64,000 nucleotides of DNA. It comes from Candidatus Omnitrophota bacterium. Its GTDB lineage: Bacteria > Omnitrophota > Gorgyraeia > Gygaellales > Profunditerraquicolaceae. Location of the stretch: positions 81,925-145,924 of the forward strand of contig JAKPTF010000035.1 of assembly GCA_029571225.1 (NCBI GenBank), in the 5' to 3' direction. A program made the translations under genes and the position numbers. How positions within the stretch are numbered: the first letter of the stretch is position 1; the number at the start of each line of letters is the position of its first letter. The notes under the pieces were generated by a model. The model was not told the origin of the DNA and did no database searches. It was given only the letters and a program-made list of their open reading frames with translations. This document shows positions 10,301 through 34,300 of the stretch, in pieces.

Positions 10301-13300
10301 ATGCACCAGGTATGGATTGGGCTGATTCTCATCCCAGGCATTGACGATCCGGTATCCGCCGCGCTCATTCCTCTCCCACGACGTTATATGGCCGAACAAT
10401 TTCTGCTTGCTTCTGAGGCCCGGTTCGACCGGCAGCATTGACCCGAAGTTATGGGCTACATCAATCCTGACCCCGGCAATCCCCAGAGCGGCAAGCCGCT
10501 CTGTCAGGTTGATGATACTTTCCATGACGCGGGAATCGCGGAAGTTCAGCATAACCGAATCATGCCATTCCACCGGCAACCCGTTCTCGTGGTTGATCGC
10601 GCCGTCGGTGGCGAGGCGGCGCACGATTCTGCCGTCGCCCCGCGCTTTTACGATCGCCCATTCCGGAAGATCAGCGAAGTTCTGGTTGACGTGCGGGATC
10701 AGGTCGACAAGTATCCTGATATCCTGTGCTTCCGCCTCTTTGATCAGGCGTTTCAGCCCTTCTTCTCCACCCAGTTCCTTGCTGACAGCCCATTTGAGCG
10801 GTGAGAATAGCGAGGCATCGGGCCCGACCTGACCTTTGATGTTCTCGGGCCTGTCAAGCTGGTAGATACCCATCAGATACACGTGGGTAAACCCGCTTTC
10901 TTTCAAATACGGCAGCATGTCTATGGCTGTCTGGAACGTGCCGGAGAGAGCTCTGCCCGTGTGGTCATATCTGACCTTTCCGCTTTCGTCATACACACCC
11001 ATATACTGCGGCCAGAGCTGGTACATGCGGCTGCCGCGGATATCCGGCTGGACGATCAGCGTCTGGTTGGCTGAAGAATCTTCGACATATCCCCATTTCC
11101 TTTCTTCTGCCAGTTTGGTTTGCAGGGATATGTGGACCATGCCTTTGCGGGCAACCAGCTTGTTCGCGCTGTGGGCAATACGCAGAATCACTGACCTGTC
11201 GGACAGCGGCTCTACGACCAGGTTACGGTATTGGCGGTTGCCGCCGCCGGACTGAGCGATGACAAGCCTGGCTTTCATGCCTGCCAGTTGCTCCTTGTCG
11301 GAGAACGGATTGAATCCGACAGTCATACGAATTTCCCCGGGTACGATAACGCTTCCCGGCGATACGATCCGCGTCACATTCGCAGCGGGGAATTCCAACG
11401 GCCTGCCGGACCGGACGTTGTTCAGGAGTGCCGCTGCACGTCGCTGTACAACAGCGCTGGGATGGCCCAATAAGGCGGTTAATAAACGCAATAGCTCATG
11501 GCTGATGCTGTCATCGGCAAGACGCACCCTTATCTTTTCCATCGTCTTGACGACCTTATCCGGGTCGTCCGAATCCAGGGCGTACACATAGCCGTACAAT
11601 TCCGGATGCGCGGCGTACAAGGAGAGCTCATCGGTAATGTACTGTATTTCCTGGTCGTCAAAGATAATATCCACACGAAGGCCATTACCGAAATATGAAA
11701 TCGTTTTTCTGCTGTCGGTCAAATAATCGACAAAATAATCGGGTGCGATCCTGACAAGGGCTTTGCCTGGAGGGAACGAATATACCAAAATGGCGTGTTC
11801 GTCTTCGAAATATATTTCATCTAATGTATCGGTGATATTCGGGACGCCGGCGTTGAGCGCAATTCCATCCAGCGTCCTGCGTACTGCCTGCTGGCGATCC
11901 ACGTTTCCTTCCAATACTAAGGGCAGGATCCCGGTCAGAAGCCCTTGCTGCGCAAGTTCCTGCCAGGATCTGAGGAATGAGGCTTTGCCGCCGTCCTTCG
12001 GAGGACCGGTTGTCTTATTGACAAGCCGATCCCTTGTATTTTTTACGATATAATCGCCTTTTGTCTTTCTGTTGGCACGTTTCGCAGTTTGTTTAACACC
12101 GTTCGCACCATTAACCGCTTGCCCTCCATTGCCGTTTTTCCCGTTGGACAGGATGAATGTTCTCCATGAAACCGCGATTGCGCCTCTTGCCTTAAACACA
12201 TCGAATACATCGACAAGGTAAGGATCTACGGAATAGAACTCGCTCTTGTCCGCCGTCCTGGAGCGAGAGAAGCGGGCTTTAGCAGCTTTTTCAAGGATCA
12301 CATTCCGCAGCGCGGAAGGGCTCATGATAACAGGCGCCTTGCGCTTAGGTGCAGGCATCACTTTCTGCATGAACGCCCTGACGTCAGGATTAAGGCAGTA
12401 ACGAGAAAATTTTCTTTCCAATACCCGTTTGCCGTTCACCACCAGGGTATCGCTCAAAACTTTTAACAAGCCTTTGCCTTCCTCCTGAATTATTTTGTAC
12501 CCCTCAGTGCTTTTTGCTTTTATGGCCGATGCAATAATGGGGTTTTTGAAATCGCGTGCCAGGATCCCCAGGAATTCGAGCTCCCTGGAAGTGCATGCGT
12601 TCCAGAGTATCCCGTATGTGACGATGTCGTTTTCAGACGTCAATTCGGTCAACGCCCGAGTAACAGGATCGAAGAAGTAGATCTTACCAGGTTTATAAGC
12701 AATGCCGCATATGTCATTTCCAGCGATATAAACCGTTACTTCATCAGCGCGATGATCACGCAGCCTCGCTTCCAGATACAGCCCTGACCTGAGCATGCTC
12801 CATTGAGGCAATTTATAGTAAGTTTTTATTTTGTACACGCCAAGGGCTGAATACCGGGCAAGATTCTCCAGGTCCTTCTGGAAAAAGTCTACGGGATTAT
12901 CATTCACGTCGTAAATCATGTTAAAGTTCCGGGATGCCACGACAGCGCCCTGCTTGTCGTAAACCCTGGCTTGAGACCAAACCAGATCGCCAGTGGCCCC
13001 TTGCTCAATATCTATCTCAGCTTTATAACCCGCGTATGTATGGAACACGCTCTGGATGACCCTATTGTTGAATTCAAGATTGCCTGTCCTCGTTACGCGC
13101 AGATTGCCGACAGTAAATCGGTCCGGCCACTGGCGCATCGAGTTATCTCCTAATTTCCAGAAGGTATCGATCGTCGTCCCGTCCGCGGACAAAACATACT
13201 TAAATTCCAGCCGTTCCTGGGACGATAAAACAAGCACTTCACGGACAAGCTTATCTTTAACGATAATTTCAATTTCTTCGGCGCCATACCGTTGGAATCC

Positions 13301-16300: not shown

Positions 16301-19300
16301 GTCATAATACCGGCGGTAGATTCTGACCAGTTCGCGCCTCACCCGGTCCCGTTCGCTTTCCGGCACCGGCGACACCCTGATATGGATGACCCGTTTATAC
16401 GCCAGCCATTCCGGCGCGTCGATATAATAGCGGGTCAAGACCGCGGACAAGGAAGGACGGTTATACGATACCTTGATTTTATTGGTGTGTATCTCGATGA
16501 TACGCATGCGCCGCTTTTCGGCCGGTATGACAGATGTGCGATTGAGATCGGCCGGGGATGAGGCGGAATCTTCCGCCACGGTAGATTTGACCGCCTCATT
16601 ATCCCCCGGCCTGAACTCATTCAAGGTCGATTGCCTGCCGCCGTCAGCTTGCTTTCCGGCGAGATCCCTGGCCTCTCTCAAATAATCATTAAAAAGTTGT
16701 GTCGAGATACTCTCATCCAGCTTTTGGAACGGGTCTTCGCTTGCAAGAGCATGATCGACCTTTTTCATAAAATGATCATAAGAATCGCGCAGGTCGGCTG
16801 CAGCATCAACGGACACAGAGGAAACCGCATCGTGAACAACAGCGCCGATGGCGCGCCAGGTTCCCTGCCTGAAAAATTGTCCGTATTGTTCCGCGGGCAT
16901 GCTTTGTTCATACAGACCACGCACTGTATCGTGGTCATAGCCTTTTTCTTTCCTCAAAACAAGATAGTACGCTCCGTCTTCATATCTGGCGAATTCCGAT
17001 GCGATAACGAACCCCGCTGCCTGCGCGAGCGCGTGGAAAGGCGCGAAACGGTATACCGCAAGCTGCGGCTTCAGCTCTGGAAATTTCTCAAGCAGCCACC
17101 GGCTTTCATAATCGTCGCCATAATGCCGCAGTAATGTTGTAAGTGAATAAGGTTTTATATCGGATATTTCTATGATCAGTTTTCCCTTGGCATTCAACAA
17201 TATCTGCGCTGATCGCAGCAGTTCAAGCGGATGCATATGATGGAGGGCACACGCAACGACAATATTGTCGAATGTCGTGCAGGCGCGGCTTAACTGACGG
17301 ATCAGTTCGAGATCGTTAAAATCACCGTGCAGGAAAGTCAGCCGATGCTCTGCTTGCTTGAGCTCTGTTTCGGAATACAATCTCCTGCCGTCCAGCCAGA
17401 CCATATCCGGATAGGGAAAATGCCGGTATGGTTCGAATATAAGGAATTTGAAACGATATTTTGGGGACTGCCAGGGGTATTTCCCGTTATGTCGCGCAAA
17501 AATCTTGTGTCGTGATGAAAAATCGCCCGATGGATAGGAACAATTCCAGCGGTGCTCTTTTGCCGTTTTGATCTGATCCTCCGAAAGATCCAATCCGACA
17601 ACTCGATGGCCCTCAACCGCCATGAGAACAGCTAAATGGCCTGCGCCGCAGCCCACATCAAGCACAGACCCGGGGTCCAGCAGATCAGGTATGGCATTGA
17701 TATCAAATAACGGATTGGATACCGCTATAGTAGGCCACATCCGGCTTTTTCCCCGGAATTGCCAGGCATCTTCCACTTCCTGCGATGAAATCTCGGCGGT
17801 CTGCCATGAAGGTTGGGACAATGTGCTGGATTCTGCGCGAACCGTGAACAGCCGTGATAACAAACCGCCGTCTAAGCTGTCTTCCCTGATATACTCAACC
17901 GTCACCGGCTGCAATTGCGAATTGTCTGCCGGTGGCGCCCAGGATTGTTTGACCATGCCCGCCCCTGCGTTGACCATGGTTTGCGTATATCCCGCCTCCG
18001 AAAGCAACGCAGAAATATAGATGCTGTTATCGCGCCGCACCGCGCGCTCTTCCATGGAAAACGCCGGCCTGGACATATTGTTATACACCTGTCCATCAAC
18101 GGTGACCACGGTCCAGGAGCCGTCATCGTTCCAGAACGCCTTTGCGACGAGATTATTATTCGACAGTTTGTCGCCGGGGACCCAGCCCGCCACAGGATCG
18201 AGATTCGACTTCATGGCGCGTATCTGATAATGGCGGCTCATGGCGTCGGAAGGATTCTCGTCCACATAGATATTGTCGCCTCTCTTTTCCTGAATAATGG
18301 GCAGCAGCTCTGCGGCAAGCTCAACCGCCTGATTGGGATAGAGGACGTGAATGTCGCCGGTCTCCTGAGTCTGCGTATATTCCGCAACGGCGGGACGGCC
18401 AAGTTCGCGCTCCCGTGACCGGAGAAGTCCAGGCATGATGTTCGCAAAGAGAACAGCGCTGTTCTGATCCTGGTTCGTCGGCTCATTAAACATGACCGAG
18501 TCCTCCTCGGATGCGGTATCACGATAGGATTCGTACACGCCCGGTTTATAGGGATCGTCGGCGTTGACGCAGGGGCCGCCGACGATACGGCCGGACATGC
18601 GCTCACGGGGAATATATCCGCTCTGGAACAGCAAGTCGGATGGATTGCGCGGCGCGCGGTCGCCATGACCCATAACAAACGACATGGCAAACGCATTCCT
18701 GCGCTCTACCACACTCTCCCAGAGATCGTACGCGGCATTCAGGTAGCGCGGGGTATAACCGGACAGCCCCTGTTGGCGATAGCTGATCTCATCGATCACC
18801 AACAGCGTGCGCACGCGGTCCATTTTATTGCGGTTCGCCCCCCACGCCCAGTCATCAGTCCTGTCGTTGAGCGCGCCGACGCCATACGGATGCACGCGTG
18901 CCATGGCCATGACTTCTTCGCCATACGCAAGAAGGCGTTCCTGCGACTGAACGCGCTCGTTCTGTAATCCGTATTCATAGACCGCATCGTCGGGATACAG
19001 CGCAAGATCGGACAACACAATATTCTGATGCCATTCTGCTTCGAAGATATGCCGCGGCTGGATGGCGTCGATATGGGCTTTAAGATAACCGACCAATGAT
19101 TCAGTCGTGATATACTCTAACCCTGCCTCCGATGATGCGCGCTCGAATATCTCCGGGTAATCGTGCGCGAATAACAGCATCTTTTCGGCTGCCATAACGC
19201 GTTCATCAAGATCGTATAGTTCCCGCGCCGGGCCTTTCTGGAAGACAGCCGGCTGTGGATGGCTCAGGAGGAAACCCCATGCGCGCAGGCTGGCGCTGCA

Positions 19301-22300
19301 GGCGTCGACAGCTTGCATATTGTCCCCCCGTTGCGCCGCAATGCCTGCGGCGACCGACATCGCGCCTGCGTATTGCGCCGTCACGAGCGTCGAGTAGTTA
19401 TTATCCGACGGCTCCACGATATACCTGTCATGTTCCGAGAACTTATAGTTTATGTCGGTATAATAATCTCTATCGCGCTCGTCCTGATATACCGAGCCTG
19501 CGAACGGGCCGGACTCGACCTGCATCGCCAGCATCCACGGGGTCTGATCTTTGAGTACTGACCTTAATTGTTCGGCGTACCGTAGCGCAAACGGACTATC
19601 TTGATGTAGAAACAGCCCCCAAACGTTATACGTTTCCGCCAGATAATCCGTTGTTGCGAGCTGGCTGCCCTCGGGGATCATGGTCGCAGGCATCGTGTCT
19701 GTCAGCCGGATAATCGTTCCGTTGGCGTCTATTACCTTGAGCTGCCGCGGTATATCGGTGATATATTTGCTGCTACGATACTCGTACGCCTCGGTCATAT
19801 CGAGCGCAAGCGCGCTGAACGGATCATCGACGACCTGGAACGAATTCGACTTAAAGAGTTCGCCCGAAACAGTCTCGATCACGATATAGTACGTCCCCGG
19901 CCTGTCGATCTGGGGACTAATGCGATAGACAAGCTCCGACGTCATAAGGTCCTTGCTCGCTTCGGACACTATTCCGTACACCTCGGATCCCATATCAGCG
20001 GTCACAAAGACCGTGCCGCGCGAATCCAGGATATAATACCGGGCGTTATCCAGCGTTCCGTCGATTGTGGGCAGCCCTGATTCCTTTGTGGGAAACGAGA
20101 CATATATCTCCTGGTCCAGTAATCCGCCGGCAGAGATAGACGTCACCGGGGTTTTGATCAAAGGTGAAGCCAGACCGTAGTAGAACTGGCCGTTTTCAGC
20201 CATAAGACCACGCATTTTCTGCAACGTTGCCGGATGCACCCATCCTTCGGGAGCTTCGCGGGTAGTCAAGCCGCCTGAAGCCGTTTGCCCGGAGGATTCT
20301 CTGTTGAACAGACGAGTAGCGGACTCGTACGGGATCAATACGCCGTGATTGCCCTGGATGCCGTTGAAATCGGAATTAAACCGCTGTTCTTCAAGCGCTT
20401 CTGCCTGCTTTGCCAACAGTTCATCGTATGTCGTGACGCCAAGCCGCCCTTCGTAAAGGTGGACATGTTCAACAAGCTTGCGGAACGCGTCAAGCTGGTA
20501 CTCATATGAATCCTGGGCCGGGCCCGTGGACAGCTTATGGAACATGAAGGTAATCGTCGCATTGTTCCAGAGGGCGCGGTCGACCACTTGCTCGTCGAAC
20601 GCCAGCCTGTCATAATCGGTGCTGTTGACCGATGCCGGCACCCGCATATAGAAGTGATAACGATCGAACGGGAAGCGCCCGTTGATTCCATCGTAATCCT
20701 CTTTGATCTGATGAGAATAAAAATGACGGTAAATATAACGCAAGGTATTCTGGTCATAGAGACACTCCGGAGAGCAGTACGAGCTGGCCGGGAAGCCGAG
20801 CATGCGCAGGGTGTTGCCTTTGCCGACGATCTCGTCGAACATCCGACGGTCGGTTTCGGCCGTTACATTTTCCGATGCGGAATGCGCTCCGATCTGATTG
20901 CCTTGCGCAGCAAGCGCCTGGACATTCTGAAGTGTCATATACTCATTATCGACATGCATCGGGTTGCCTGTCCGCTCGTCCCACATGGTTTCGGGTATGA
21001 TGTTGTACACCGCGGGGTATCCATACCTATGCAGGATATCCGCCGCCGCGAACTGGCTTTTCCATCCGTCGTCAAATCTGAATATGACATGCGGCTGCCG
21101 CAGCCAATTCAAGGCCTCGGAATCAACGACGCGCGATACCCGGATGCCATCGCAATAGGCCTCGAGCCGTCCGTCGGCTTCTTGCGCCTCGATGGCAATC
21201 GCAATGGCTTTTACGTCCTTGCCTGAGGGCGTATAGATAAAGGTATCCGAGGTAATGCCGGGCGCTGCTGACTCTTTCGTGGACGCCCGCTGGATCAAGA
21301 AAGCCCGGCTGCCTTTCATGGAGTATTCATCAACGCAGATTTTAACGGATCCTTTCTCCATCTGGCGGACATCGACCATATATTCGACCACATACGTCTG
21401 GGACGGATCGACCCGGACAAGGTCAGAATGCGCGATACCCGGCGCGCTTATTTTTAATGATGCGCCGGGGGACGGATACACGCCGTTATCATTGAGGTCG
21501 ACATCCCACCCTGTTTGCGGGACTGCCCACCCTTCAACCTTTGCGTACGGCCGGGGCACAAAAAGCTGGAATCCGGCTAAGCCCTCGATCTGTTCCAGAA
21601 GTATGGACCCGGCTCCTTCAACGCCGTTTGCCCCGAAACCGAGTTCTTCGACGACACGAACGCTTTCGCCGGCGACAGGGACCCCGGCCGTAATGCCCAG
21701 GGCCATCATCATTTCAGGGCCGACGAGGACCATTGAGATCGTATCGCTTGCGAGCGTGACAGCCGTCAATCGCGAGGCTTTCCGAGCCGGCGAGCGGACG
21801 GACCTGTCCGCAAATTGCGCCTGCCATATCTTGATTACCACAGGCAGGTCAAGAAACGCCACGACAATCATGCTGTTGAGCAGCAATTCCGGGGTGACCA
21901 CGAACATGCCTGCTACCGGCAATACAATGCTCGACAATGGGGTGTTCAGCCATACAGGATCAAGGAAGAAATACAGGATGGCAGGCCCGATCCTCATACC
22001 GAGGATCGCCAGGAACAGGCGCTGGCTCAGGAATGAAACAGCGCCTCGCGTCAGGGCGATCGCGCCGGTCATCAGCGCAAGCGCGGCGCCTCCTGTCGTG
22101 CCCCTGGACGCGCGCGTCCGGTCTGCATACCGGACGATCACTCCGTCCATAATATTGAAAAACGGCTGTAACGTCGCGGCCCTGGACAGGATGCGTAAAA
22201 TTTTCCCTTTGGCATGGGGCATGTATGCCGCGTCAATTTCTTCGCGCGTCTCCATGATGAATTGCCGAAGCAGGGGCTCCGGGACCCGATTCGCGTATCC

Positions 22301-25300
22301 GTGAAACGCAAGGCCCGCAGGGACAAGGAAATGGCGCAGGAAGAAACGATACAGGATCATGAGGGTAAGGATATCCCATATCCAGGTCCCGATCATCAGA
22401 AGACCCTTTGCCAGAGGATTATTGGCCGACGCCCGTTTTGCGCTTAACGGAGAGAAAAAGCCGATCTGCCGGGAAGCGTTATATTCGTTGATCTTCTGAG
22501 AAACTCCGCGTAAGAGCTTCCTGCGATAGATAATATCCTTGACATCAGGAGCTATTCTATCTATGTCCTCGGCAAGGCTCGATCCTGCGGGCTGCTTTGC
22601 CATGGAGAACCGGTAATATGCGGCCAGGATGCCCAGGGTAAAAACGGTCACGCCTGCTATGCCGACGGCATATTCTGCGAAAAAGGCCGATGCCCCGGTG
22701 GCAGCTGGCGCAAAGATGCCCCATCCCGCGCCTGAAACGGCCGCTGAGAGAATGCCCATAGCCGGAGTATAAAGAATACAGGCTGATATGAACGGAGCCG
22801 CCCAGATCCCGAAAGCCAGCACGCAGGTAAACGCGGCGAATGTAGCAGGGTTTCCGATATACCGCCGCAGCGAATTTTCCGGCGGGACGGAATCAACAGT
22901 GGCTTTAGGGCATTTTATCCGTCCGAGCAGGAACTCTATCGTCGCGATCGGCGACGTGATCACATCCAGGAAGAAAGTCAGAATGCCCTGCGGAACCATG
23001 TAAAGGAATGCTTCGTCCCGGTATTCTTTTTTGAACTCGGGGTTCATGACCATAAGAAATCCCTGGGATACAATCGAATATGCGACAGCAATGATCGTCG
23101 TCATGATGGGATTCAGGAAAAACGGTATGAGGAACCCGAAAAAGGTTACATATCTTGTCATTTCGACCAGGCTGTAGATCCCGAGGGCGCTCCCCTTCTT
23201 GATTTCTTGCCAGTAGAAACCGCGATACCGCATATATGTCTTTAAGGCCCCGCGCCTCCACCGGATACGCTGCGAGAACAAGCGCCGTAATGTCGAAGGG
23301 ACGATCGTCTTGATTTCCAGGTCGTCGTTGAAATATCCGACGCGATAACCGTGCTGCTGCAGAAGAACGGTAACCTCCATATCGTCTCCGTCATGATCAA
23401 GCGAATGGTTGCCTAACGCGCGCATCAGGGGAGCGGTATTGAACACGCCCCCTGCCCCTGGGATGCACCGCATATTGCCGTGCCTGCAGAAAATGGTATG
23501 AAGCATGCGGTCGGATATATACTCGTAATACTGCACCTGCTGCAACATCCCTGATCCCCGGTCCAGGTACGGGACATCTTTTAACCCGACAGCCTGCCAG
23601 TCATTCCGATCCATCAATATGAAGATATCCCGTAATTTGTTCTTGATGGTCAGAGCTGATCCGTCCCGCGTCCACAAGAATGAATCCCCGTCGATCAAGA
23701 TGACCCGGCGCGGCAGTTTATGGTTCTCGGAAAGTGAATCAAGCGCTGCCTTGATCTGGCCGATCTTTTTTCGGTTACGAGTGCCGAAAAATGCATTGAT
23801 GCCGCGCGTTTCCGACAGCTCGCGGAGTATATCTGCAGTGGCATCGGTCGAGCCGTCATCGATAAAAAGGCATTGTCCTAGATACCCATATTCACGGGCC
23901 AGTTCGACGATGTGCCGAATGTTTTTGGCTTCGTTATACAAAGGCAGGAATATCAGGTAATCCTGATCCGGTTCAACGTCATTTTTCCATGTTCCCATTG
24001 CCTCCTTCGCTGCCGGACCGACGGCCTTTTCTTTCCGCGCCTCCCTGGCGGATATCAAGGTGACAATGGCAAATGAAATAATCACAAGCACGCTTCCCCA
24101 GTGCTCCAGCAGGAATGAACCGCCCGTTACGGCAGCGGTGGTCAGATCGCCCCACAAAACCGACGTTGGATCGAACAAAGCGCTCTGGAGCCCAGCGCTG
24201 TTGTTAACGGACTGGGCGTGATATTGCAGGAAACTCAGGATATTAGCACGCAAATGGGCAAATGGCACATCGAGCATAAGATACGTCCCGTATATAAGCG
24301 GCATAAGCATTGCTGCGCCTTGTGCGAGGGCCAGGCCTCTCGACAATGGCGTTTTTTCCACGCTCACCGGTTTTTCCCAATCAATGTCAATCGCCCGTTC
24401 AGCCAGGACTTCCGCTGTTACGGCACCGCTCGGCTTCTGGTACCCGTTGGGCAGCTTATTGACCATGCCCCGGGTCCCCCAGTTATTGTCCGCCATGGTT
24501 GCCAATGCAATGAAGCTCAAATGATCGAACAGGAGCATGGAGAAATAGAACTGGCCGATGCCGAAATAAAAGTTCGTACGCCTGTTTTCGTAATAATAAA
24601 ACAGCGACAATACGGCAGCCATCATCGTGCTGCAGACGATATAGGTCCAGGCCGGGATTCCCAGGATCAACCAGTTAATGCCGATGAGGATAATGACAAG
24701 GGGGCTAAAAAAGAACGTGCTTGACATGGCGATAAGAGAGATTCCGACGGCAAAGGGATGCGCCGGCCAGTTAGACGGCGTCAACAGAAGACGGGCCGTT
24801 TCATAGAAATGCGACCGTTTCCAGCGGAGCTGCTGCTTGAAGAACTGCCTGAAGTTCTCGGGGACTGCCGTGCGGGCTACGGCGCGCGGATGATAATAAA
24901 TCTTATAACCGCGGGCAAGGATGATGTTGGTCAAATGGCGATCCTCCCCGACAGTGCAGAACTTTTCGCTCAGGAACTCATCAAGCGTCGCAAGGACAAG
25001 GTCGCGCCGGGTCGCGGTGAATACGCCGGGGCAGCATGTAACGTCGCCGAACGCGCTCTCAGCCGCTTTGACGATGCGGAACATGAAGAAATACCATGTC
25101 GCCTGAAAACGCGTGAGCATATTGACGTCGTGGTTGACGACATCGCAATGGCCGCACGCGGCGCCGACCCTCTCATCCTTGAAGAACTGGACAAGGCGCC
25201 TGAACGATCCCTTGTCGACGATCGTATCGGAATCGAGCGAAATGATGATATCGCTGTGTTCGCTGGTGCGACGCACGCCTGTTGCCATTGCCTCCTGCTT

Positions 25301-28300
25301 GCCTTTATTGACTTCATGATGCAGGACCGTAATCTCAAAACCGTACCTGTCGCGGGCATATGCCTTGATATATTCAAGCACGGTCCCTGAATTATCCTGG
25401 CAGCCGTCGTTGACCGCGATCAGTTCCATCCTGTCAAGGGGGTATCCGTTCTCAATGCAGCTGATGATGGTTTTGGCGACGTCGCGCTCTTCGTTATATA
25501 CCGGCAGGACAACGGAAATGAACGGCAGATGATCGTCCGTTCTGGGCAGGACCAGTTTATTGAATCCGGCGCACAAGAAAACTATCGACCAAACGCTTGA
25601 TACCAGAGCGATAAAACCGAATACCGACGAAACAAGCATGATCGTTGCGAACGCGCCGATGAACAGGGAAACCGACAGCGCAAGGCAGAAAGGCTTGATA
25701 AGCCTGATGTTGGGAGTTCCGTCTTCGCCCATGAAACGCGCGGTGATCAGGAAACGGCGGATATATTTTCCCCCGTCCTTGCCCGGAGCGGCGAGGACGG
25801 CGTCGGCGAATGCGTGAGCGCTCGCATAGATGTCGGAGCGCTCGTTGATGCCGCGATACGCGGCCATGAATGCGGTGACGAGCAGCGCACGGCGAAGGCC
25901 TGTGCCGTTAAGCACGATAATAGTATCTTTAAGGCCGGCGGTGAATACGGTAACTGCGGGGATCAATTGACTGGCCAGGTGGGATATCTCGTCGCGCAGC
26001 TGCGGCGGCGCCCGCGCTACCTGCAGGCTGGCGAGTATGTCGGCAATCTCATGATATCCCCTGCTGCGCAACCGGTCAATGACGATCGTTTTCTCATCAA
26101 GGTAATACGTGCTGTAGTACATCGGGTCCATGCGTCCCGCATACGCGTTCACGATGTCCGTCAATTCCCGCTCTTCGTTTTCCGTCAACGGACGGTCGGC
26201 TGCGGCCGGGATGAATGCTGCGCCGTCAAGGTCAAACATGCCCTTGAGAACAACGGCGAGCTCTTCCGGATCATTGACCAGAATAAGCTTTTCTTTCAGC
26301 GCCGCAGGGATCACATCGAAGTTCCTGACGAACGCGCCAGTCGCGCCTTCGAACACAAGTTCGAGCATGTCGAGGTCATTTTCGCTGTCGCCTGCGACGA
26401 ATATACGCTCTGCCGGGATGCCGCTGCGCGCGGCAAGGTCCTTAAGCGCCCTGCCCTTTGCGGTCAGGCCTATATCGATGGCGACGTTATTGTTATTGAA
26501 AACATAGATTCCGTCTTCGCTCAATCGCTGTTCAAGATATTGAACGACCTGCGGCGCGTACTGCCTGTACTCCGGTTCATTGAACTTCAGGGTGCGCGAT
26601 GAACGCTTGCGGTCGTTTAAGACTATTTTGCCCGGCGTGCCTTCCATGACGAGGTCATCGATGAGGCCAAGTTCAGTCAGCTTTTCCTTCACGGCGCTCA
26701 ATATCTTTGCCTGCAACGCTTCGGACAACTCCAGGGAATATTCGATATCCCGCACGAATTCGCACTGTTCTGTGCAATAACCTATATGGCCGCCGAGCTC
26801 GCCCAGGAATATGAGACGCCGAGGATCTCTTATCCCGGAGAGAATGCCGGTTTTTGCGCTCAATTCATCATAGACGAATTTCGGACCCCTGCCTGAAACA
26901 ATAGCGCCTAAAGCGCCTTTGTTAAGAGCCTCTATGATTGCGCCCTGCAACGCAGGAGGCACTTGCTTGAAATAAACGCTATCAGGATCCAAATCCGTCA
27001 ATGTACCGTCGTAGTCGAACGCAATAAGCCACTGCGAGACATCTTTTTTGATACCCCCGTCTTTAATAAAGTCTTTCGGAAGTAGGAAACATTTCAGGCC
27101 TGAAGCAGGAACATTCTGCGGGCTCGTTTTCTGGCTTATTGAAGGAATAATATATATTACTATTGCCGTCTCGTCCACAAAAAGGCCAGATCCATTCTTT
27201 TCACTGAGCTCAAACGCATTGACCGTGGACAATCGGGAACTGAAATAGTGTCGTGTGACCGTAAGCCTTAATTGCAACACTGCGCCGAAGATATTCTTGA
27301 GCACCCTGATTGATATAGAGCCGATGCCGCCGTCTTTCAGGGTGAACGTGCGTTTTGCGCCTTCTTTCTTTGTGCGCTGCCGCTGCGCTTCGGCTGTCGT
27401 ATTGGTAAGCCGCACGCCGTTGGCATCATCAACAGGAAGTTTGGCATCCTTGAGTATGCCTTTCCTGCGCGCGCGATCGACCGCGTCTTCACCGCCGTCT
27501 TTGTACACGGCGACCTTTTTGATCATGGGACAGATATCGATATTCTTAATGTCCTTGGCCACGATTTGAGCGCCTGCTGCACGCAGTTCGTCTTCATTGC
27601 CGAGACGCGCAAGGCCCAGGCCGAAGAACCCGCCTGCGCGCGCCGCCTCCATGTCAGCGACGGCGTCGCCTATAACAAGGGTCTTTGCAGGGAACACACC
27701 CAACTTCTTCGCTGCCAGGAGGAACATATCCGGATGCGGCTTGCCGTGGGTCACATCCTTTGAGGTAACGACAGCTGTAAAATAACCGATCAGGCCGACG
27801 TCCGTCAGAAGCTTGACCGAAACATCGGAGCCGGAGCCCACGGCAAGCGGGACCCCGGAAGCATGCAACCGCTGAATGAGGCGTATAGTGGATTCAAATT
27901 TCTTGATCCCGTCATGCGCCAAAAATTCGAGATAATACTTATGCACGGCCGCATGGCAACGGTCTATTTCATCGCTGCGCAGATCCGGGAACCATTTCTT
28001 TAACGATTCGCGGCCTTTGCGCCCGTTCAGATTATGATCGTAGAATTCAAGATCAACCTCAGGGCCGCCATTTTCTTTGAAAACCCGGTTCCATGCAATC
28101 ACCCAGACGGGCGTCGTATCGAATATGACGCCGTCCACCTCGAATATCACGGCCTCGAATATCCCCACGAGGGCGCCGCCGTCGAGCGCGGCAAAATCGA
28201 GCGGACCCTCGAGTTTCCTGAGTTTGCCCGCCTGCCCCATCGCTTCGCGCATGATATCGCGCGCGTCAATATGGCCCAGGGCTCCGTGAAGCGCGTCGTC

Positions 28301-31300
28301 TTCGGTAAACCTCGAGATCCACGATGACCGGCGATTGTATTTCGAATACACCAGTACCGGCACTTCATGCCACGAATGGCCTTTCATTGCCGCGGGAGTC
28401 GAATGGTCTCCTGTTACGACCAGGACATCCCGGCGGTCTGTATCAAGCAAATCCAGAATTCCTGGCAGTGCTTGGTCCACCTGTTCGATATACCGCACCT
28501 TGGCGTCAAAATCCCCGTCTTCCCCGGCTTTATCCGTGTATTTAAAATGCACATAAAAGAAATCGTGGTCTTCCCAATGATCCCTGACTGCGGCAAACTC
28601 ATCGGCAATGGTCTGGCTGCCTCCGACCGGCAAAAGCTTCATGCCGACGACGCTTGCAATGCCCTTATAGGCGGGATACGTCGCGACAGCCGCGGGGTTC
28701 AATTGATAGATTTCGGTGAACGACGGCAGCTGGACCAGCTCATCCCAGCTGCGAAGAAGAATGCTGTTGATCTGAGATTCGCCGCTCAGCCTTCGGTGAG
28801 CCGTTTCGACGATCTGCCTGACGAGCTGAGCCGTTGATTCTGCTTCCGGGACTTTCGCCTCAGTCAATAACGCGGGCTTGCCTGTCTCCTCAGGGTCAGT
28901 ATCTTTCAGTTTGGCGCTTAAATCCCTGCCGCCGCGCAATATCAATACACCGCGATGTTCCTTGGTCACCTGGATCAGCACCTGGACCTCGCCGAATTGC
29001 AAGCCGGTAAGGCAGCGCTCCACAACCCCGGAAGAAACTTCCGTTGCGACGCGGCCTGCGCGCCGGTCAACGATAATGCCATCCCTTGCCGTTGCGAAAT
29101 TCACCCTCGCGATGACATCGCCGGGCATCAGCTTGATATTATCGCCCATTGCGTCAAGTATGCCCCGGCCCACCGCGTGGATATACGGGTCATAGCCGAA
29201 TATCGCAAAATGGCCCGGGCCGCTTCCCGGCGTGACGCCGGCGCCTGCGATCCGCGAGAGACCGACAGAACCACGGCGGGCAAGTGAATCGAGATTCGGG
29301 TGCGCAGCCTTGTCCAGTTCTGTGCCGGCCTCGCCGGGCATGTGTAAGCCGCCCAGACCGTCCATGACGAGAAAGACGATTTTGGAATCTGTCTTTATCG
29401 AAAGCCCCTTCATTTCCTTGAGATGCCGGTCAAGCGCGTGCTTCTTGACATTACCGCCGTCTTTATGCTCCGACTCTCCTGACTGCTGCGGCTGTCGATC
29501 CCGGGTGATGCGCGCCCTTCGCTCTTTCATTATATCCTTAAGATCAGCGCGCAGATTCCATATAAGCCATGACTGAATAATGACGGTTCCGATACCCAGC
29601 CACAACAGGCCCGCAGTCACATATCCATGGAAGAACGCCGCAATCGCAGGAATGACCACCAACAACACTTCATGGAACGCCATGAGGATAAACGGAAGCG
29701 CATTGAGTATTTTGTCTTCGGTGCCGCCGTCATGTTTCACGCGCGTCTGAATGCCGTACTCAAGGGCAGTTATTGCAAAAACAGGGGCTCTGCGATCAAT
29801 CATACTCAGCGGTTGCGAATATCTGGTCGAGGCAAGAAGCATGGCGGACGCCTCACAGAGAAACGCCGCCGCCCTGGCCTTTGACAGAGTGCGGTAGTTA
29901 TTTCTTGTCTCAATAGTGATTTCGAAAAGCCGGTCATGGTAGCCGGCCGGCAGAATCGAAATCAAGAGCGCATTAAGGTTCAGAAGCCGGCTTATGGCTT
30001 TTTTCGTATTCCCTGCAGATAAATGGCGGAATGCGTTAATACAGGTGAAAACAGCGGCGCCATATTTCACGATCGCGGGAATCTGTTTCTGCGAAAAGTC
30101 CTCGCCCCGCAGCAGCAGCGCATTCGGCAACTCCACTTTCCAGCAATAATTTGACTTCAGATCATGCCTGTTGTACACGTTAATGTCTATGCGCTCGCCG
30201 TTGAATGCTGAGGTGAACCGCCGCGAGCGCTGGCGGTCTTCGGTGATCACGAGCACGTCCACGTCCGAATACGCCGGGCACATGATGAAAGACCCAAAAA
30301 CGTACACCGCCGCTGCGCGTGATCCGGGTTCAAGACAATGAAGCACGTGTTCGACCCCTCCGGTCTGTACGAATGTTGCGATCCGCGCGCAGATCGCCTT
30401 CTGCAGCGATTCATCCACGGTATTGCGCCAGAAATATCTGCCGGCCAATTCAGCACGTATTCCTTCGATCGTGCCGGCCTCTGTGCCGCCGTCTTTGCAA
30501 AGCGCGCTGATATCTTTCATCATGAGACTTGAGCCGATAAAGCCCCTGCGCTTCCAGAATACAAGCTGCTGCTCGTAGGGCGCGCCGCCATCAAACCATA
30601 CATTCGCCTTATCGGATCCCGGATACGGACCTTCGGCGACCTCGATCATCTTATTTGATGCACCGATGAAATCAACCTTGTGGCCGCCAAGGCTCAGGAT
30701 CCGGTCGCCGGCACTGAGCAGCAGCGTATCAACCGGCTTACCCTGGGGAGTATACACGGTGTATTTGACCTCGCCGCGGACTACGAATATCAACTCGATC
30801 CTGGGCTTCTCGATCGGGGTCGGGCAATGCGGCCGGCCGATATCGTTCTGTGCCGGGGACTTGGTGCCGATGCCCAGCGCGAACGCAGGATTCGTCATAA
30901 CCTTGTATTTTTCAAATTCAATGCCGCTGCGCAGGACAAGCGCATGGATCATCCAGTAATAATAGGAATCCATGACAAGCTCCGGAGTGAATGACGCATC
31001 CCGGTTCTCATTGTAATCGGAAATGCTCGGGCTGGTGACAACAGGAAGGTGTTCGGTTTGATATACGATCGACACGACCGACTGCTCTGAGGCAATGATG
31101 GAACGGTATGAAGTAAGGATGGTGGCCAGATCTCCCGCCGACAGCTCGATGTGCCTGCTTTTTTCTTGCGAATCGAACAAACCAAGGGTGACCTTGCCGG
31201 ATTCGACATAAATGACATCCTGGGCCGGCGGGCCCCGGGTCCGCGGCCGGTATTCCTGTCCGGGCTCCAGATCAATGACTTCCAGTTCAACAGGCAGGCC

Positions 31301-34300
31301 CTTTGGCTCCAGAATGACGCCGCGGGAATCCCTGCGGATAACGATTGCCTGCGTTCTGCCGTTATGATCCACAATGGCCTGTCCAAAAGGTTCAACGCCA
31401 GCATTGCCCCCGTCGCGAGGCTTTGTCCTTGCAGCGCCGCAGTTCACGCAACCCTTGAACTCGCGCAATTGGCTTATCCTATCATATGCCTTCAGGAATA
31501 ATTCGACATCCTTCTGCGGCAGAAGCCCAATTTCCACATCAAGCTCATAACCGCTTGCCGGCGCGTGGACCGCGTTGAACATAATACCCGTAATCCTGGG
31601 GCTCAACCCGCGCGCCTCCGCTTGCCTCATGAACTTTGCAACAGCGGTATTCGCATATTTTGTCTGGTTCCATACAACATGCCTGAGGCTTCCCGGATGC
31701 GCACGGTTTATATCGGTCGCGCCCACGACGACGGCTTTGACAAAATCCTGCTCTGCAACGGCAAGCGGGTTTTGACCTTTCAAAAGCACCGTTGCCTCTT
31801 CGACGGTCAGATGGAATGCTTTGAGAACGTCTTCACGCGGCCTCCTCCTGACGAGCATCCACGGCTGCATTTCCTGCCTGCTGTATTCGATCCAGAGGCT
31901 GAAAGCCGCAACGGACAACTCCCCGGGATATAGGTTCTGTATCGCAGCAAACCATTGTTCGAACCGGACGCCGTCTTTGTCAGCAATGATCTGCCTGCCT
32001 TCTTCTATAAGGGCAGGATCGATTATTCCTGACCGCTCCAGTGCATCGAGATTCGTGGTAAATGCCGTATGGCCCCAGCGTTCCAAAAGATGCTGGATGG
32101 TCACGGGAGCGATCGCGCCCTTGAATACCCTGAAGCTTGATCCAAGGCGCTGATTCAGTTTATAATTGAGCGGCTCGCTTAATCCTCCCCTATCCCCGCC
32201 TTTGAGCCAGATAAACGAAATCGTGCCGACCGTGCGCACCAATGCGCCCAGGAGGTTTTCATCTTTATGCTCCGATACAATAATTCCGCCGTCGTTCTGA
32301 CGCCTTGACGCGCCGGCAACAGGCAACCATACCTTGTTGCTGCGGCGCTCAACCCGCGCCTTCAACGCATCCAGCATACTCCATGCCGCGGCGAATTCAG
32401 GTGATTTCTTCCCGCCGTTATATGTTTTACGATATGTTTCAATGTCTGAAACCAAAACCGCCAGTGATGCAATCGCCGATGTTCTCAGACGCTTTGCTTC
32501 CTGTCGGAATTCATTATCGTTAAGCATGATACCACGATACGCGTAAAATTCCCTGTTCCAGCCATCGCTGGTCCGGTCGAGCAGCCGGTCCAGCCGCATC
32601 GCCCAGAAACCGCCGTTCTCTTTCGGCCGCATAGCATAAAATTTCCGGTCCTTTTCATCGCCGACCTCATTGAAACCAAGGCCCCGCACCAGGCCGCGCA
32701 GCGGGCCGAGCGTAAGGTTTTCATAATCTTCCTCGTACGATGCCCGGCTCTCGTCTTCCGGCGACCACAGATAATACAGACACGCCCATTCAGGAGCAAG
32801 GCCGAATAGCGCGCCCAGCTGTGCTGCCCGCATGAATGTCCGGGCGGTGATCTCTTTCAGGACATGTTTGCCGGGGATATACGATATGAAGTTGATCCCG
32901 CTGTTGAACGGATTACACGTAAATATCTTCACGGCGTTATTATCGAGCCTGAAATTCGTCACGCCGATAAGCACGCCGTCAAAGTAAAATCTGCCGCGTA
33001 CCCGGAACGATTCGAGCCGGCCGGTTTCAAGGGACTTGCTGGCCTGTTCAATGATCCATTGCTCTCTGATTTCAGAGGAAACGATCGGCCGTGTAACCGC
33101 CGCGCTCAGATCCAGGCCGCCGTCTTTCTTTCCTTCATATTTGCCGGTGACGATATCAGGGTCTTCACGGTGATCTCCCAGATATCTGGACCGGGCAATA
33201 AACCTGCCGATGACTCCGAACGCATCCATGGAAACCCCCGCGAGCGCTGCAGATATGCCGATTGCCAGAATAATGAACGCCGCAGCCGGGAAGCTGCCGA
33301 TAAGCATGCCTGCGCCGACGCTGCCAGCCATGATCATACCGACGAAAACAATAAAACCTTTTGCATTCAGGCCGTACGGGAATTCCTGCGCCCATTCCTC
33401 AAGCGTCTTTTTGTCCCCGCCGTCAAATGTCTTTTCGAGCAGGGCGAACCATTCCCTCGTGCCCTCCGTCTCACTACCCATCCAGATCATGCGGCAATCG
33501 GTCCTTGTAAGATCAGGCTCTTCCTTATCCACGCTGATAATGTATTCCAACTGGGACTTTGTCACTTGTTCTGAAACCGGTCGGGCATTTCCGCCCTTAA
33601 AGAATTCGTTGCCGTGATAGATATACAAGGCATCCGGCCCGATCTGGGCGATCACATCATTGACTGCAACTGCCTTGTTGACGCCGGCGACGTTGATGTC
33701 AACCGTGACGCCGGTTGCGCCGCCCGCTTCAAAAGCCTCATACGGCAGACGCAGCGTCCGGAAGAAATCGTTGAATTCCGCTGCGATAGACCCGCGCGCC
33801 TCGGGCGGAACCGGCTTGAACGCAAGCTGGAACACCGGTTCATTGGTAATCGCGCGCGTTTTCGCATCAGGCCGCAGCTCTAATCCCGGTTTTCGCCAGG
33901 CGTACGACATGCGGCCGGCGGCACGCGTCCCGAAAATGAATCCCGGATACAGGTATCTATGCGATACTTCGCCTTTTTCATTGATCTTTTGATTTTCCGC
34001 CAGCGCGATATCGACGCTGTGCCAGAGATCGATGCTCACTTTACGGGCGATTGGCTGGATCATTTCGATATGCACCGGATCAACGGTCTTGCCGCTGCGG
34101 TATGAGATATCTTCGATACGCGCGCCATTCTTGAAGGTGAACTTCTGCGCGGCGCCGTTGCCGTAAATAATGAAGTTATCGAAGAGCTCGACCTTGCCCT
34201 GTTCAGCAAGCGCTTTCAACAAAGGCGTGACAATACGCTCGTTCTGTTTCAAGATATCATTGCCGGAGATGATGGCGACAATGAACCCTTTCTCCAGCAT

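Follow-up and report, generated by a model that had tools for sequence, protein, structure and literature searches.

We analyzed a 64-kb window (the whole stretch of 64,000 nucleotides (nt) examined here, from contig JAKPTF010000035.1 of a Candidatus Omnitrophota bacterium), the minus strand of which reads without a stop from nt 2 to 64000, giving one frame of 21,333 codons that stays open at both ends. Within this giant open reading frame (ORF), and in frame with it, lies a putative exopolysaccharide synthesis cassette at nt 17864-25777 (minus strand, as are all window features given below). The cassette starts and ends exactly on the tripeptide Asp-Gly-Gly (DGG): the upstream copy, a K-DGG preceded by ...APGK, occupies nt 25769-25777 (residues 1-3 of the local numbering used hereafter) and the downstream copy, ...YIREDSLDGG, occupies nt 17864-17872 (local 2636-2638). 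Read from its N-terminal side, the cassette comprises a family 2 glycosyltransferase (GT2) resembling hyaluronan synthase (HAS) and chitin synthase, a second GT2, a polytopic membrane domain, a beta-sandwich resembling carbohydrate-binding modules (CBMs) of families 4 and 16, a CE4 deacetylase domain, an immunoglobulin (Ig)-like domain, a GH9 domain and a tail of ~185 amino acids (aa). At 2,635 aa it is the longest stretch in the window with DGG on both sides, so the description of it as the largest DGG-free stretch in our initial annotation holds for DGG-bounded stretches, whereas the first 2,856 aa of the frame are also free of DGG but are cut by the window edge.

Pfam searches of the cassette matched GT2 families twice (120 bits), Chitin_synth_2 (E = 1e-20), Polysacc_deac_1 and Glyco_hydro_9, and a Kyte-Doolittle scan placed 15 hydrophobic segments between local 31 and 1368 and none beyond 1368. 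Single-sequence searches against solved structures were empty for the CE4 region, the N-terminal part of GH9 and the second GT2, and profiles were needed for structure matches. The initial annotation had called two QxxRW-type GT2s, a CBM-like sandwich, a CE4 and a GH9 domain, all of which are supported by Pfam, by profile searches of the PDB and by AlphaFold models compared with Foldseek, and the motifs it quoted are all present (GEDRHLT at local 277, QQLRWKRS at 315 and QRIRWRRG at 836); its list of parts is right as far as it goes, but it missed the Ig-like domain and the conserved C-terminal domain. Plus-strand ORFs within the cassette (≤349 aa) had no family matches and were taken as antisense noise.

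Relatives in Omnitrophota and Methanobacterium

Word-indexed protein searches returned 2-3 relatives per query, and the informative relatives came from an exhaustive search and from contig scans. These revealed that the cassette recurs in other Omnitrophota giants at 33-44% identity with the order of the GT2s permuted, one copy having the same DGG bounds, and that the family is rare, with 264 matches at E <1e-3 and only 11 at E <1e-30 among 1.84 billion cluster representatives. The copy with the same bounds comes from L085/L086, two contigs of 702 and 165 kb held in two archives that share a 21-kb stretch within an open frame; in L085 the cassette runs from DGG 2029 to DGG 4547 (2,518 aa; 34% identity over 2,140 aa), and its end, ...IYKDDLDGG, aligns residue for residue to the ...YIREDSLDGG of the window. 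Its order is that of L001/L002 from two Joint Genome Institute (JGI) samples, with which P0004 groups (by way of L001), namely DGG, GT2B, GT2A, polytopic domain, sandwich, CE4, Ig and GH9, so that GT2B stands behind GT2A in the window but ahead of it in L001 and L085. Other relatives are shorter or rearranged: P0005, from another Omnitrophica metagenome-assembled genome (MAG), joins a homologue of the first GT2 directly to the polytopic-sandwich-CE4 portion (34-38% identity) and does without local 520-1024; three other large proteins (P0012, P0013 and P0017) have the permuted order sandwich-CE4, transmembrane (TM) segment, GT2A, TM segment, Ig-GH9; and two more (P0016 and L084) have GT2A, one TM segment and sandwich-CE4.

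A free-standing gene of 1,391-1,473 aa with the order GT2A, polytopic domain, sandwich and CE4 was found in Methanobacterium MAGs of 28-30% GC content (L005, at 2009-6322; P0015, on a 645-kb contig; and L087, at 7190-11608 of a 369-kb contig). These homologues are 31-39% identical to the Omnitrophota cassette and end in a C-terminal TM anchor and a zinc ribbon. With GT2, polytopic domain, sandwich and CE4 co-occurring as a conserved unit in several relatives, the initial claim of a single fused block is borne out. On the strength of the alignments, the Methanobacterium homologues suggest gene transfer between methanogenic archaea and Omnitrophota. As a separate observation, methanogens are the prey of V. 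archaeovorus, the cultured member of the Omnitrophota, and Methanobacterium, with which the cassette is shared, is a genus of methanogenic archaea.

Three further features of the relatives are recorded here. In L085 (aa 4550-5123), P0009 (C-terminus) and P0011 (aa 579 onward) the cassette is followed by a nucleoside diphosphate (NDP)-sugar dehydrogenase resembling UDP-N-acetylmannosamine and UDP-glucose dehydrogenases (TIGR03026, 236 bits against a cut-off of 190), a neighbor that hints, by its family assignment, at a uronic-acid-containing polymer; in the window the cassette's successor is instead an S-adenosylmethionine (SAM) methyltransferase (nt ~17000-17670). The cassettes of L001 and L002 (JGI 3300018489 and 3300018490) are broken by identical within-domain frameshifts in two separate samples, which could be sequencing or assembly error or could mark a decaying copy. 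Lastly, P0010, a complete Omnitrophota protein of 2,870 aa, carries after its GH9 domain (aa 1385-1410) the residues PGF, a TM helix and KRQ, followed by ...ESLDGG, and this PGF-TM-KRQ arrangement resembles, at the level of its motifs, a PGF-CTERM-type sorting signal.

Synthase and polytopic membrane domains

The first GT2 begins with an N-terminal TM hairpin (nt 25568-25687, local 31-70; from the Kyte-Doolittle scan) that has a K/R-rich stretch before it, continues into the catalytic domain (nt 24788-25519, local 87-330; matched by Pfam GT2, by Chitin_synth_2 and by the Chlorella virus HAS, CvHAS, structure 7sp7) and then into interface and TM helices that extend to a WGTRG motif (nt 24467-24763, local 339-437; from the CvHAS alignment). 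CvHAS is its best solved-structure match (E = 2e-26, identity ~25-30%), and the motifs LDSDT (local 181, with DSDT at 182), GEDRHLT and QQLRWKRS align to the same motifs of that enzyme. The alignment takes in GDDRxLTN/GEDRHLTN, QQTRWSKS/QQLRWKRS and the stretch of membrane helices up to WGTRG, the gating-loop motif (local 433-437, nt 24467-24481), which is the same in both sequences and closes the alignment, while hydrophobic segments lie at the places expected for a pair of TM helices (TMHs) at the N-terminus and four at the C-terminus, a placement from the Kyte-Doolittle scan rather than a model-confirmed count. Class I HAS likewise has two N-terminal TMHs, and the gating-loop role of WGTRG in it has been described (PMC11750622). 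Because of the CvHAS alignment and the WGTRG loop, the first GT2 is, judged by sequence, a member of the HAS/chitin-synthase/NodC clade. The subfamily assignment by hidden Markov models that the initial annotation had proposed gave no such membership at a finer level, since among NCBIfam models PgaC/IcaA and NodC ranked first for the cassette, with PgaC_IcaA at the top for both GT2s, but all fell far short of their equivalog cut-offs.

The second GT2 (nt 23198-23959, local 607-860) was identified by Pfam GT2 families, Glyco_trans_2_3 (50.6 bits against a cut-off of 27) together with Glycos_transf_2 and Glyco_tranf_2_4, and carries DDGS at local 640, DGDS at 696, GDDME at 797 and QRIRWRRG at 836. 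It has no WGTR-type loop and no solved-structure match by sequence, and its best NCBIfam match, PgaC_IcaA at 66.4 bits, is far under the cut-off. It sits in a rearranged insert (nt 22688-24103, local ~559-1030) made up of a duplicated TMH6-like helix (local 559-577), the second GT2 and its interface and TM helices. The insert is flanked by a TMH5-equivalent helix that follows the gating loop (nt 24260-24340, local 480-506; homologous helices occur in P0005 and L005) and by a TMH6-equivalent helix (nt 22613-22669, local 1037-1055) that is followed by a K/R-rich segment, presumably cytoplasmic. At this place the insert is absent from P0005 and L005, and in L001 and L085 it is found upstream of the first GT2; furthermore, the archaeal protein has one TMH6, to which local 559-577 (nt 24050-24103) and local 1037-1055 each align. 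To judge from these alignments, the two TMH6-like helices and the contrast of B-A and A-B GT2 orders look like what a duplication and a deletion left behind when the second GT2 was moved.

Next comes the conserved polytopic membrane domain (nt 21608-22612, local 1056-1390), which has no Pfam match and was delimited by conservation in relatives, being 33-38% identical in P0005, L005, P0015 and L085. It contains the motifs LYRFFLRHFLVP and GPE...GVPVAGESVRVVEELGFGANG, and across the Omnitrophota and Methanobacterium copies alike the near-invariant forms are LYRFFLRHFLxP and GPE..G[VI]P[VL]xGE[ST]VR..EE..[FY]GANG. We had initially taken this region as a long polytopic part of the second GT2, an attribution we now withdraw: it is a separate domain, which joins the first GT2 to CE4 in relatives that lack the second GT2 at that place.

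CBM-like, deacetylase and hydrolase domains

Evaluating the tail further, AlphaFold modeled the beta-sandwich (nt 21143-21550, local ~1410-1545) and the CE4, or NodB-homology, domain (nt 20378-21115, local 1555-1800) with a predicted local distance difference test (pLDDT) score of ~75-90 (~80-90 for the sandwich). The sandwich has no Pfam match, and its Foldseek matches include CBM4 (1gu3), CBM16 (2zew) and CBM70 (4d0q, a hyaluronan-binding module), while the best match for sandwich and CE4 together is a two-domain one to 8qpg_TA, the turret protein of Haloferax tailed virus 1 (HFTV1; E = 1.6e-11). The Pfam score of CE4 is marginal (PF01522, Polysacc_deac_1, 24.0 bits against a cut-off of 23.1), but a profile of 18 sequences, the cassette CE4 with ordinary relatives, reaches CE4 structures at E = 4e-25, the profile of the cassette CE4 itself has PgaB as its top, though weak, solved-structure match, and Foldseek matches 7ax7, 1ny1, 5lfz and 4l1g at target-normalized TM-scores of 0.5-0.6. 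In the 18-sequence alignment motif 1 is RFDDGW (local 1567; FD invariant, the second D kept in at least 90%), and the column of motif 5, FMFHK (local 1744), is nearly invariant.

The Ig-like domain (nt 19817-20182, local 1866-1987) lies N-terminal to GH9 and is kept in 7 homologues; the best structure match of its profile, weak but at the right position, is to CelD, in the Ig domain at the N-terminus of that enzyme (1clc residues 57-132, E = 0.036). The GH9 (alpha/alpha)6 domain (nt 18428-19690, local 2030-2450) is recognized by Pfam (PF00759, Glyco_hydro_9, 48.5 bits against a cut-off of 27.7) and by a 7-sequence profile that finds GH9 structures at E = 4.7e-22, and its AlphaFold model (predicted TM-score 0.75) retrieves GH9 enzymes as all ten of the top ten Foldseek matches, at query-normalized TM-scores of up to 0.57. 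Represented in these ten are AaCel9A, CelD with its Ig domain and the exo-glucosaminidase PBPRA0520, and the GH9 exo-glucosaminidase structure 5dgq is among the fold matches. The catalytic-acid motif, equated by motif and position, is FNEPT (local 2430), in which NE (2431-2432) is invariant in 7 homologues. Upstream of a conserved W, an invariant PEG (local 2035-2037) is a candidate, by spacing only, for the position of the DAGD motif, in a part of the model where pLDDT is <50; ATTD (local 2041) was considered as the DAGD equivalent but appears less likely, as its D is not conserved and the invariant PEG fits the spacing better. The C-terminal domain of ~185 aa (nt 17873-18427, local 2451-2635), which has no Pfam match, aligns to its end in L085.

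Because of these profile E-values (4e-25 and 4.7e-22) and the fold matches, together with Pfam, the CE4 and GH9 calls are not spurious; spurious calls were an outcome that the initial annotation had named as fatal to its reading. CE4 and GH9 activity is plausible from the conserved residues, but both active sites are non-canonical and enzymatic activity is therefore not assured.

Membrane topology

The parity of segment counts was rejected as a guide to topology, as it gives 15-17 segments depending on threshold and is ambiguous in the polytopic block, and we therefore used charge bias at single helices in homologues of simpler architecture. Across 11 flanking helices in 8 proteins (7 homologues and the cassette), counting 20 residues to each side, the GT2 or downstream side holds 2-8 K/R (4-8 in 9 of the 11) whereas the CE4/GH9 side holds 0-1, apart from one helix with 3. 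In the window copy, the final helix ahead of the sandwich has 3 K/R on its N-terminal side against 1 K/R and 4 D/E on its C-terminal side, and the archaeal proteins end in a hydrophobic anchor, then NKRRK or NKLKSKEK, then the zinc ribbon. The GT2s are placed inside because uridine diphosphate (UDP)-sugars are cytoplasmic and the WGTRG loop is cytosolic, and by the positive-inside rule the K/R bias would place sandwich-CE4 and Ig-GH9 outside the cytoplasm. We thus read the homologues as having GT2 inside and CE4/GH9 outside, and infer the outside location for the window copy. To that extent the proposed logic of synthesis, export and deacetylation in cis fits, as the parts co-occur and the charge bias agrees. 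The premise that CE4 and GH9 modules are normally extracytoplasmic proved too strict. NodB and the Photobacterium GH9 glucosaminidase are cytoplasmic enzymes, so an outside location is not obligatory.

DGG as a boundary peptide

DGG is the most enriched tripeptide in the window frame, with 37 copies against 6.7 expected (5.5-fold), and it is preceded by K or R at 21 of the 37 sites. Example sites, given by the first base of D, are nt 55441, 44773, 42817, 36979, 34483, 29461, 28183, 27499, 25777, 17872 and 14317. No DGG falls inside any of 26 Pfam envelopes (P ~7e-5), and DGG-bounded pieces match the sizes of free-standing enzymes (GlgB 652 aa, GH94 832 aa, iPGM-like 426 aa and HAD 228 aa). Under random placement of DGG a gap as long as the cassette is not improbable on its own (~1% per gap, with 38 gaps); it is meaningful because the DGG positions are non-random and because the same bounding DGGs occur in the independent giant L085. 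DGG is enriched 7- to 10-fold in the independent proteins P0010 and P0011 and occurs 13 times in the 7,049-aa frame of L085. When the window and L085 were compared by BLAST (blocks of 33-58% identity), all 8 of the L085 DGGs inside blocks coincided with window DGGs, and several blocks start or end on DGG. The blocks are arranged differently in the two genes. A role as an internal Shine-Dalgarno or other nucleotide signal was rejected, with GGAGG at only 4 of the 37 sites, and the preference for GAC and GGC within DGG mostly reflects general codon-pair usage, GAC also serving in 73% of all other D-G pairs (Fisher p = 0.055), for which reason DGG is treated as a peptide signal.

Peptidases of the C39 type cleave behind Gly-Gly. 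For Omnitrophota giants, published work reports domains of C39 and S8 peptidases; West-Roberts et al. 2023 describe the cleavage points in giants as unknown, and a term search of that paper finds no mention of a DGG motif. The 64-kb window contains no peptidase domain, and the gene runs beyond it. We offer tentatively, as a possibility held at rather less than even confidence, that K/R-DGG are processing sites of Omnitrophota giants, that cassettes are shuffled between giants and that this cassette was exchanged with Methanobacterium. Cleavage after DGG would convert a polyprotein into pieces the size of native enzymes and would free the cassette's tail from the cytoplasmic enzymes that follow, so that a return helix after GH9 would be dispensable in the window and in P0011.

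Apart from the cassette, five short DGG-bounded pieces lie between enzymes of cytoplasmic type and hold one TM helix (three pieces) or a TM hairpin (two pieces). They are located at nt 53576-53812, 50843-51055, 36971-37444, 33116-33415 and 29453-29722 (giant aa 3397-3475, 4316-4386, 8853-9010, 10196-10295 and 11427-11516, respectively). If uncleaved and membrane-spanning, the single-helix pieces would put neighboring nucleotide-sugar enzymes on opposite sides of the membrane.

The host giant gene

The rest of the giant frame encodes, by Pfam, two GT5+GT1 glycogen synthases, two NUDIX domains, a complete GlgB, a GH94, an iPGM-like metalloenzyme, three HADs, the SAM methyltransferase, alpha-amylases and GDE_C, with a HATPase also among the domains tiled across it, and the frame as a whole has 47 hydrophobic segments by the same scan. 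Parts of the window are 100% identical to the partial proteins P0001 and P0006 ('MAG TPA: Candidatus Omnitrophota bacterium'). Giant aa 1-2856 (nt 55433-64000), the DGG-free edge of the frame, contain two clusters of ~8 hydrophobic helices each and are almost without Pfam matches, the only one being a sub-threshold match to a guanylate-kinase P-loop.

As an Omnitrophota ORF of >10,000 aa that has numerous TM helices and an array of domains for sugar metabolism, methyl transfer and NUDIX functions, the host gene belongs to the described class of Omnitrophota giant multi-enzyme proteins, for which West-Roberts et al. 2023 use the name 'Archaeovorins' and Nielsen & Lui 2026 the term 'multi-enzyme metabolic cluster', with Seymour et al. 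2023 as a further source. In exceeding 21,000 aa, in being rich in TM segments and in holding GT5/GT1, NUDIX, methyltransferase, HAD and glycoside hydrolase domains, the host gene fits this class. Term searches of these papers did not find a GT2/CE4/GH9 cassette or a DGG motif.

Proposed function and its alternatives

Taken together, we favor, with reasonable but far from complete confidence, the reading of the cassette as a single-chain synthase-dependent exopolysaccharide machine, in which product, activity, outside location and release at DGG are the inferred elements. It combines, as such systems do, a GT2 synthase-translocase with polymer-modifying enzymes that include a hydrolase, the outside location of the latter being suggested by charge bias in homologues. 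The first GT2, at the cytoplasmic face, would polymerize a beta-glycan containing N-acetylglucosamine (GlcNAc) from UDP-sugars and thread it through its own TM channel, with the QxxRW-type second GT2 beside it. By way of the polytopic domain the chain would then reach the membrane's outer face, where the tail of CBM-like sandwich, CE4 de-N-acetylase, Ig-like domain, GH9 and ~185-aa domain would bind, partly deacetylate and trim or release the polymer. The product is probably a GlcNAc-containing, partly de-N-acetylated beta-glycan that may resemble chitin/chitosan, poly-N-acetylglucosamine or hyaluronan, and a role as cell coat or in adhesion in these epibionts is speculation.

Several observations weigh against this reading. 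The cassette region scores far below the NCBIfam equivalog cut-offs for PgaC/IcaA (TIGR03937, 188.4 against 422.3 bits) and for NodC (TIGR04242, 177.8 against 550 bits), and no Pfam domain for a cyclic di-GMP (c-di-GMP) receptor (PilZ or PgaD-type) or for an outer-membrane tetratricopeptide repeat protein or porin was found among the families listed for the cassette or elsewhere in the window, beyond which the gene extends. AlphaFold models of the polytopic domain from five sequences have a pLDDT of ~30 and give no fold or three-dimensional topology, and the topology was drawn from the Kyte-Doolittle scan and the positive-inside rule instead of a trained predictor. In CE4 motif 2, HSASE (local 1632), the first His is kept but the second metal-binding His is replaced by Glu, and DAGD is absent from all 7 GH9 homologues, where the profile alignments start downstream of the site. 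Finally, no hydrophobic segment follows GH9 in the scan over the remaining ~5,950 aa of the window, which hold enzymes of SAM-, ADP-glucose- and phosphosugar-type, so that an exported tail needs an extra assumption. The repeated membrane crossing that we had anticipated is therefore only partly right: the chain does pass through the membrane several times, but after GH9 it reaches the enzymes of cytoplasmic type without a helix that would bring it back. Relatives vary in this respect, with a return helix and K/R cluster after GH9 in P0009, P0010 and P0012, a weak helix only, beyond the DGG, in L085, and no helix in P0011 and the window, where ~130-190 aa, K-DGG and the next enzyme follow. Three ways out present themselves, namely that cleavage at DGG frees the tail, that the tail is cytoplasmic or that everything downstream is exported, and of these cleavage appears the likeliest.

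A cytoplasmic CE4-Ig-GH9 tail in the window copy would sit beside the glycogen and sugar-phosphate enzymes in a NodC/NodB-like or oligosaccharide-recycling arrangement, with the GT2 making oligomers or polymer and the tail deacetylating and cleaving GlcNAc oligomers inside the cell. Such a location would be in keeping with the lack of a hydrophobic segment on the way from GH9 to the SAM methyltransferase, HAD, GT5 glycogen synthase and GDE domains that come after it, the ambiguous counts in the polytopic block leave room for it, and cytoplasmic CE4 (NodB) and Ig-GH9 enzymes exist, 5dgq being among the fold matches. We nevertheless regard it as unlikely, given how charges are distributed around the last helix to precede the sandwich, the homologues of simpler architecture, which all put CE4 and GH9 outside, and the archaeal homologue, which is 33% identical through the polytopic and CE4 domains with no TM insertions or deletions and carries a stop-transfer anchor at its C-terminus; action on extruded polymer would also suit a tethered tail and a CBM-like sandwich. 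As another alternative, CE4, GH9 or both could be catalytically dead and serve as carbohydrate-binding or scaffolding modules, in which case the glycan would be made and held but not modified. The loss of the second metal ligand, at a position that varies as E/Y/D/Y in four cassette-type sequences but is His in 14 of 14 distant relatives, the missing DAGD and low AlphaFold confidence around both sites all lean that way; against this stand the conservation of motif-1 DD, the first His, the motif-5 His, GH9 NE and PEG at the expected spacing, an invariant His in SHQI that, by its conservation, might substitute for the lost ligand, and the 37-50% identity of both domains across lineages, such that we think inactivity distinctly improbable.

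That the cassette is instead an attack tool, with CE4 and GH9 deacetylating and cutting the wall glycans of prey and the GT2s as accessories, would accord with the prey wall binding and degradation by giants proposed by West-Roberts et al., with the published ~3-fold increase of V. archaeovorus giant-protein peptides in attached cells, and with a CE4/GH9/CBM tail facing outward by charge bias. In every relative found, however, the tail is coupled, covalently and evolutionarily, to a HAS/chitin-synthase-type GT2, the GT2-CE4 unit is a normal chromosomal gene in the non-predatory Methanobacterium, and the neighboring cassette in relatives is an NDP-sugar dehydrogenase, a supplier of precursor. 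Because of this coupling to a polymerizing GT2, the non-predatory methanogen copy and the dehydrogenase neighbor, the evidence favors biosynthesis over attack, and we give the attack tool little credence. An assembly or frame artefact that wrongly joined separate genes is scarcely credible. The organism's public fragments do come from short contigs (P0001 of 6.6 kb and P0006 of 1.3 kb) and L001 and L002 do have frameshifts, but the frame is free of stops over 21,333 codons, public fragments of independent origin match it at 100% identity across the junctions of first GT2, second GT2 and polytopic domain and across sandwich-CE4, the same continuous cassette is found in open frames on the 702-kb and 165-kb contigs from two archives, and giant ORFs of the Omnitrophota class are documented from complete genomes.

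Comparison with known systems and implications

Comparison with known polysaccharide systems, made by analogy of architecture, points to Streptomyces MatB and to PgaC/PgaB as the closest analogues. PgaB consists of CE4 plus GH153, and so pairs CE4 with a glycoside hydrolase. Escherichia coli PgaC/PgaD/PgaB/PgaA and staphylococcal IcaADBC share with the cassette a GT2 synthase-translocase followed by CE4 de-N-acetylation, periplasmic in those systems, and a hydrolase, but they are separate proteins with GH153 rather than GH9, the cassette scores 188 against 422 bits, and no PgaD/c-di-GMP element or outer-membrane porin was found in it. Cellulose synthases are likewise paired with glucanases, as in BcsA/BcsZ (BcsZ being GH8), the plant CesA with the GH9 enzyme KORRIGAN and the tunicate CesA-GH6 fusion. 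The likeness lies in a processive GT2 with an endoglucanase-type hydrolase acting on the nascent chain, a GH9 one in plants and a GT2-GH fusion in tunicates, whereas these systems are not known to include a deacetylase and the cassette implies another sugar chemistry through its CE4 and HAS-like motifs.

MatB combines on one polypeptide an intracellular processive GT2 and, across the membrane, an extracellular CE4, with GT2 inside, one TM helix and CE4 outside, for synthesis and deacetylation of poly-N-acetylglucosamine in cis (PMC5972031). It has one GT2 (PgaC-like), one connecting helix and no hydrolase, whereas the cassette has two GT2s, the WGTRG signature, the polytopic domain, the CBM-like sandwich, Ig-GH9, a further tail and its embedding in a giant gene. 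Class I HAS, NodC and chitin synthases (CvHAS 7sp7; PMC11750622) share with the first GT2 DxDT, G(D/E)DR, QxxRW and the WGTRG gating loop, as well as an arrangement with two TMHs at the N-terminus, interface helices and further TMHs at the C-terminus; they differ in having no fused CE4/GH tail, and identity to the first GT2 of the cassette is only ~25-30%. The HFTV1 turret protein (8qpg, annotated as 'prokaryotic polysaccharide deacetylase'), although the best two-domain fold match to sandwich-CE4, is a virion protein of 12% identity with no synthase, a likeness of fold and architecture only.

The cassette is thus a one-chain version of surface-polysaccharide systems that otherwise consist of several proteins, within a known class of giant genes. 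It gives one section of the Omnitrophota giant genes a concrete proposed function, the building of surface polysaccharide, rather than or in addition to the degradation of prey walls. The condensation of polymerizing, translocating, binding, deacetylating and cutting into one chain may inform how these steps are coupled in Pga, Ica, Bcs and HAS systems as well as their engineering, and the free-standing Methanobacterium gene (~1,400 aa) offers a tractable experimental entry point. The more surprising lead is the DGG boundaries that define the cassette, which are conserved and coincide between independent giants and so would be candidates for the cleavage points missing from the giant-gene literature.

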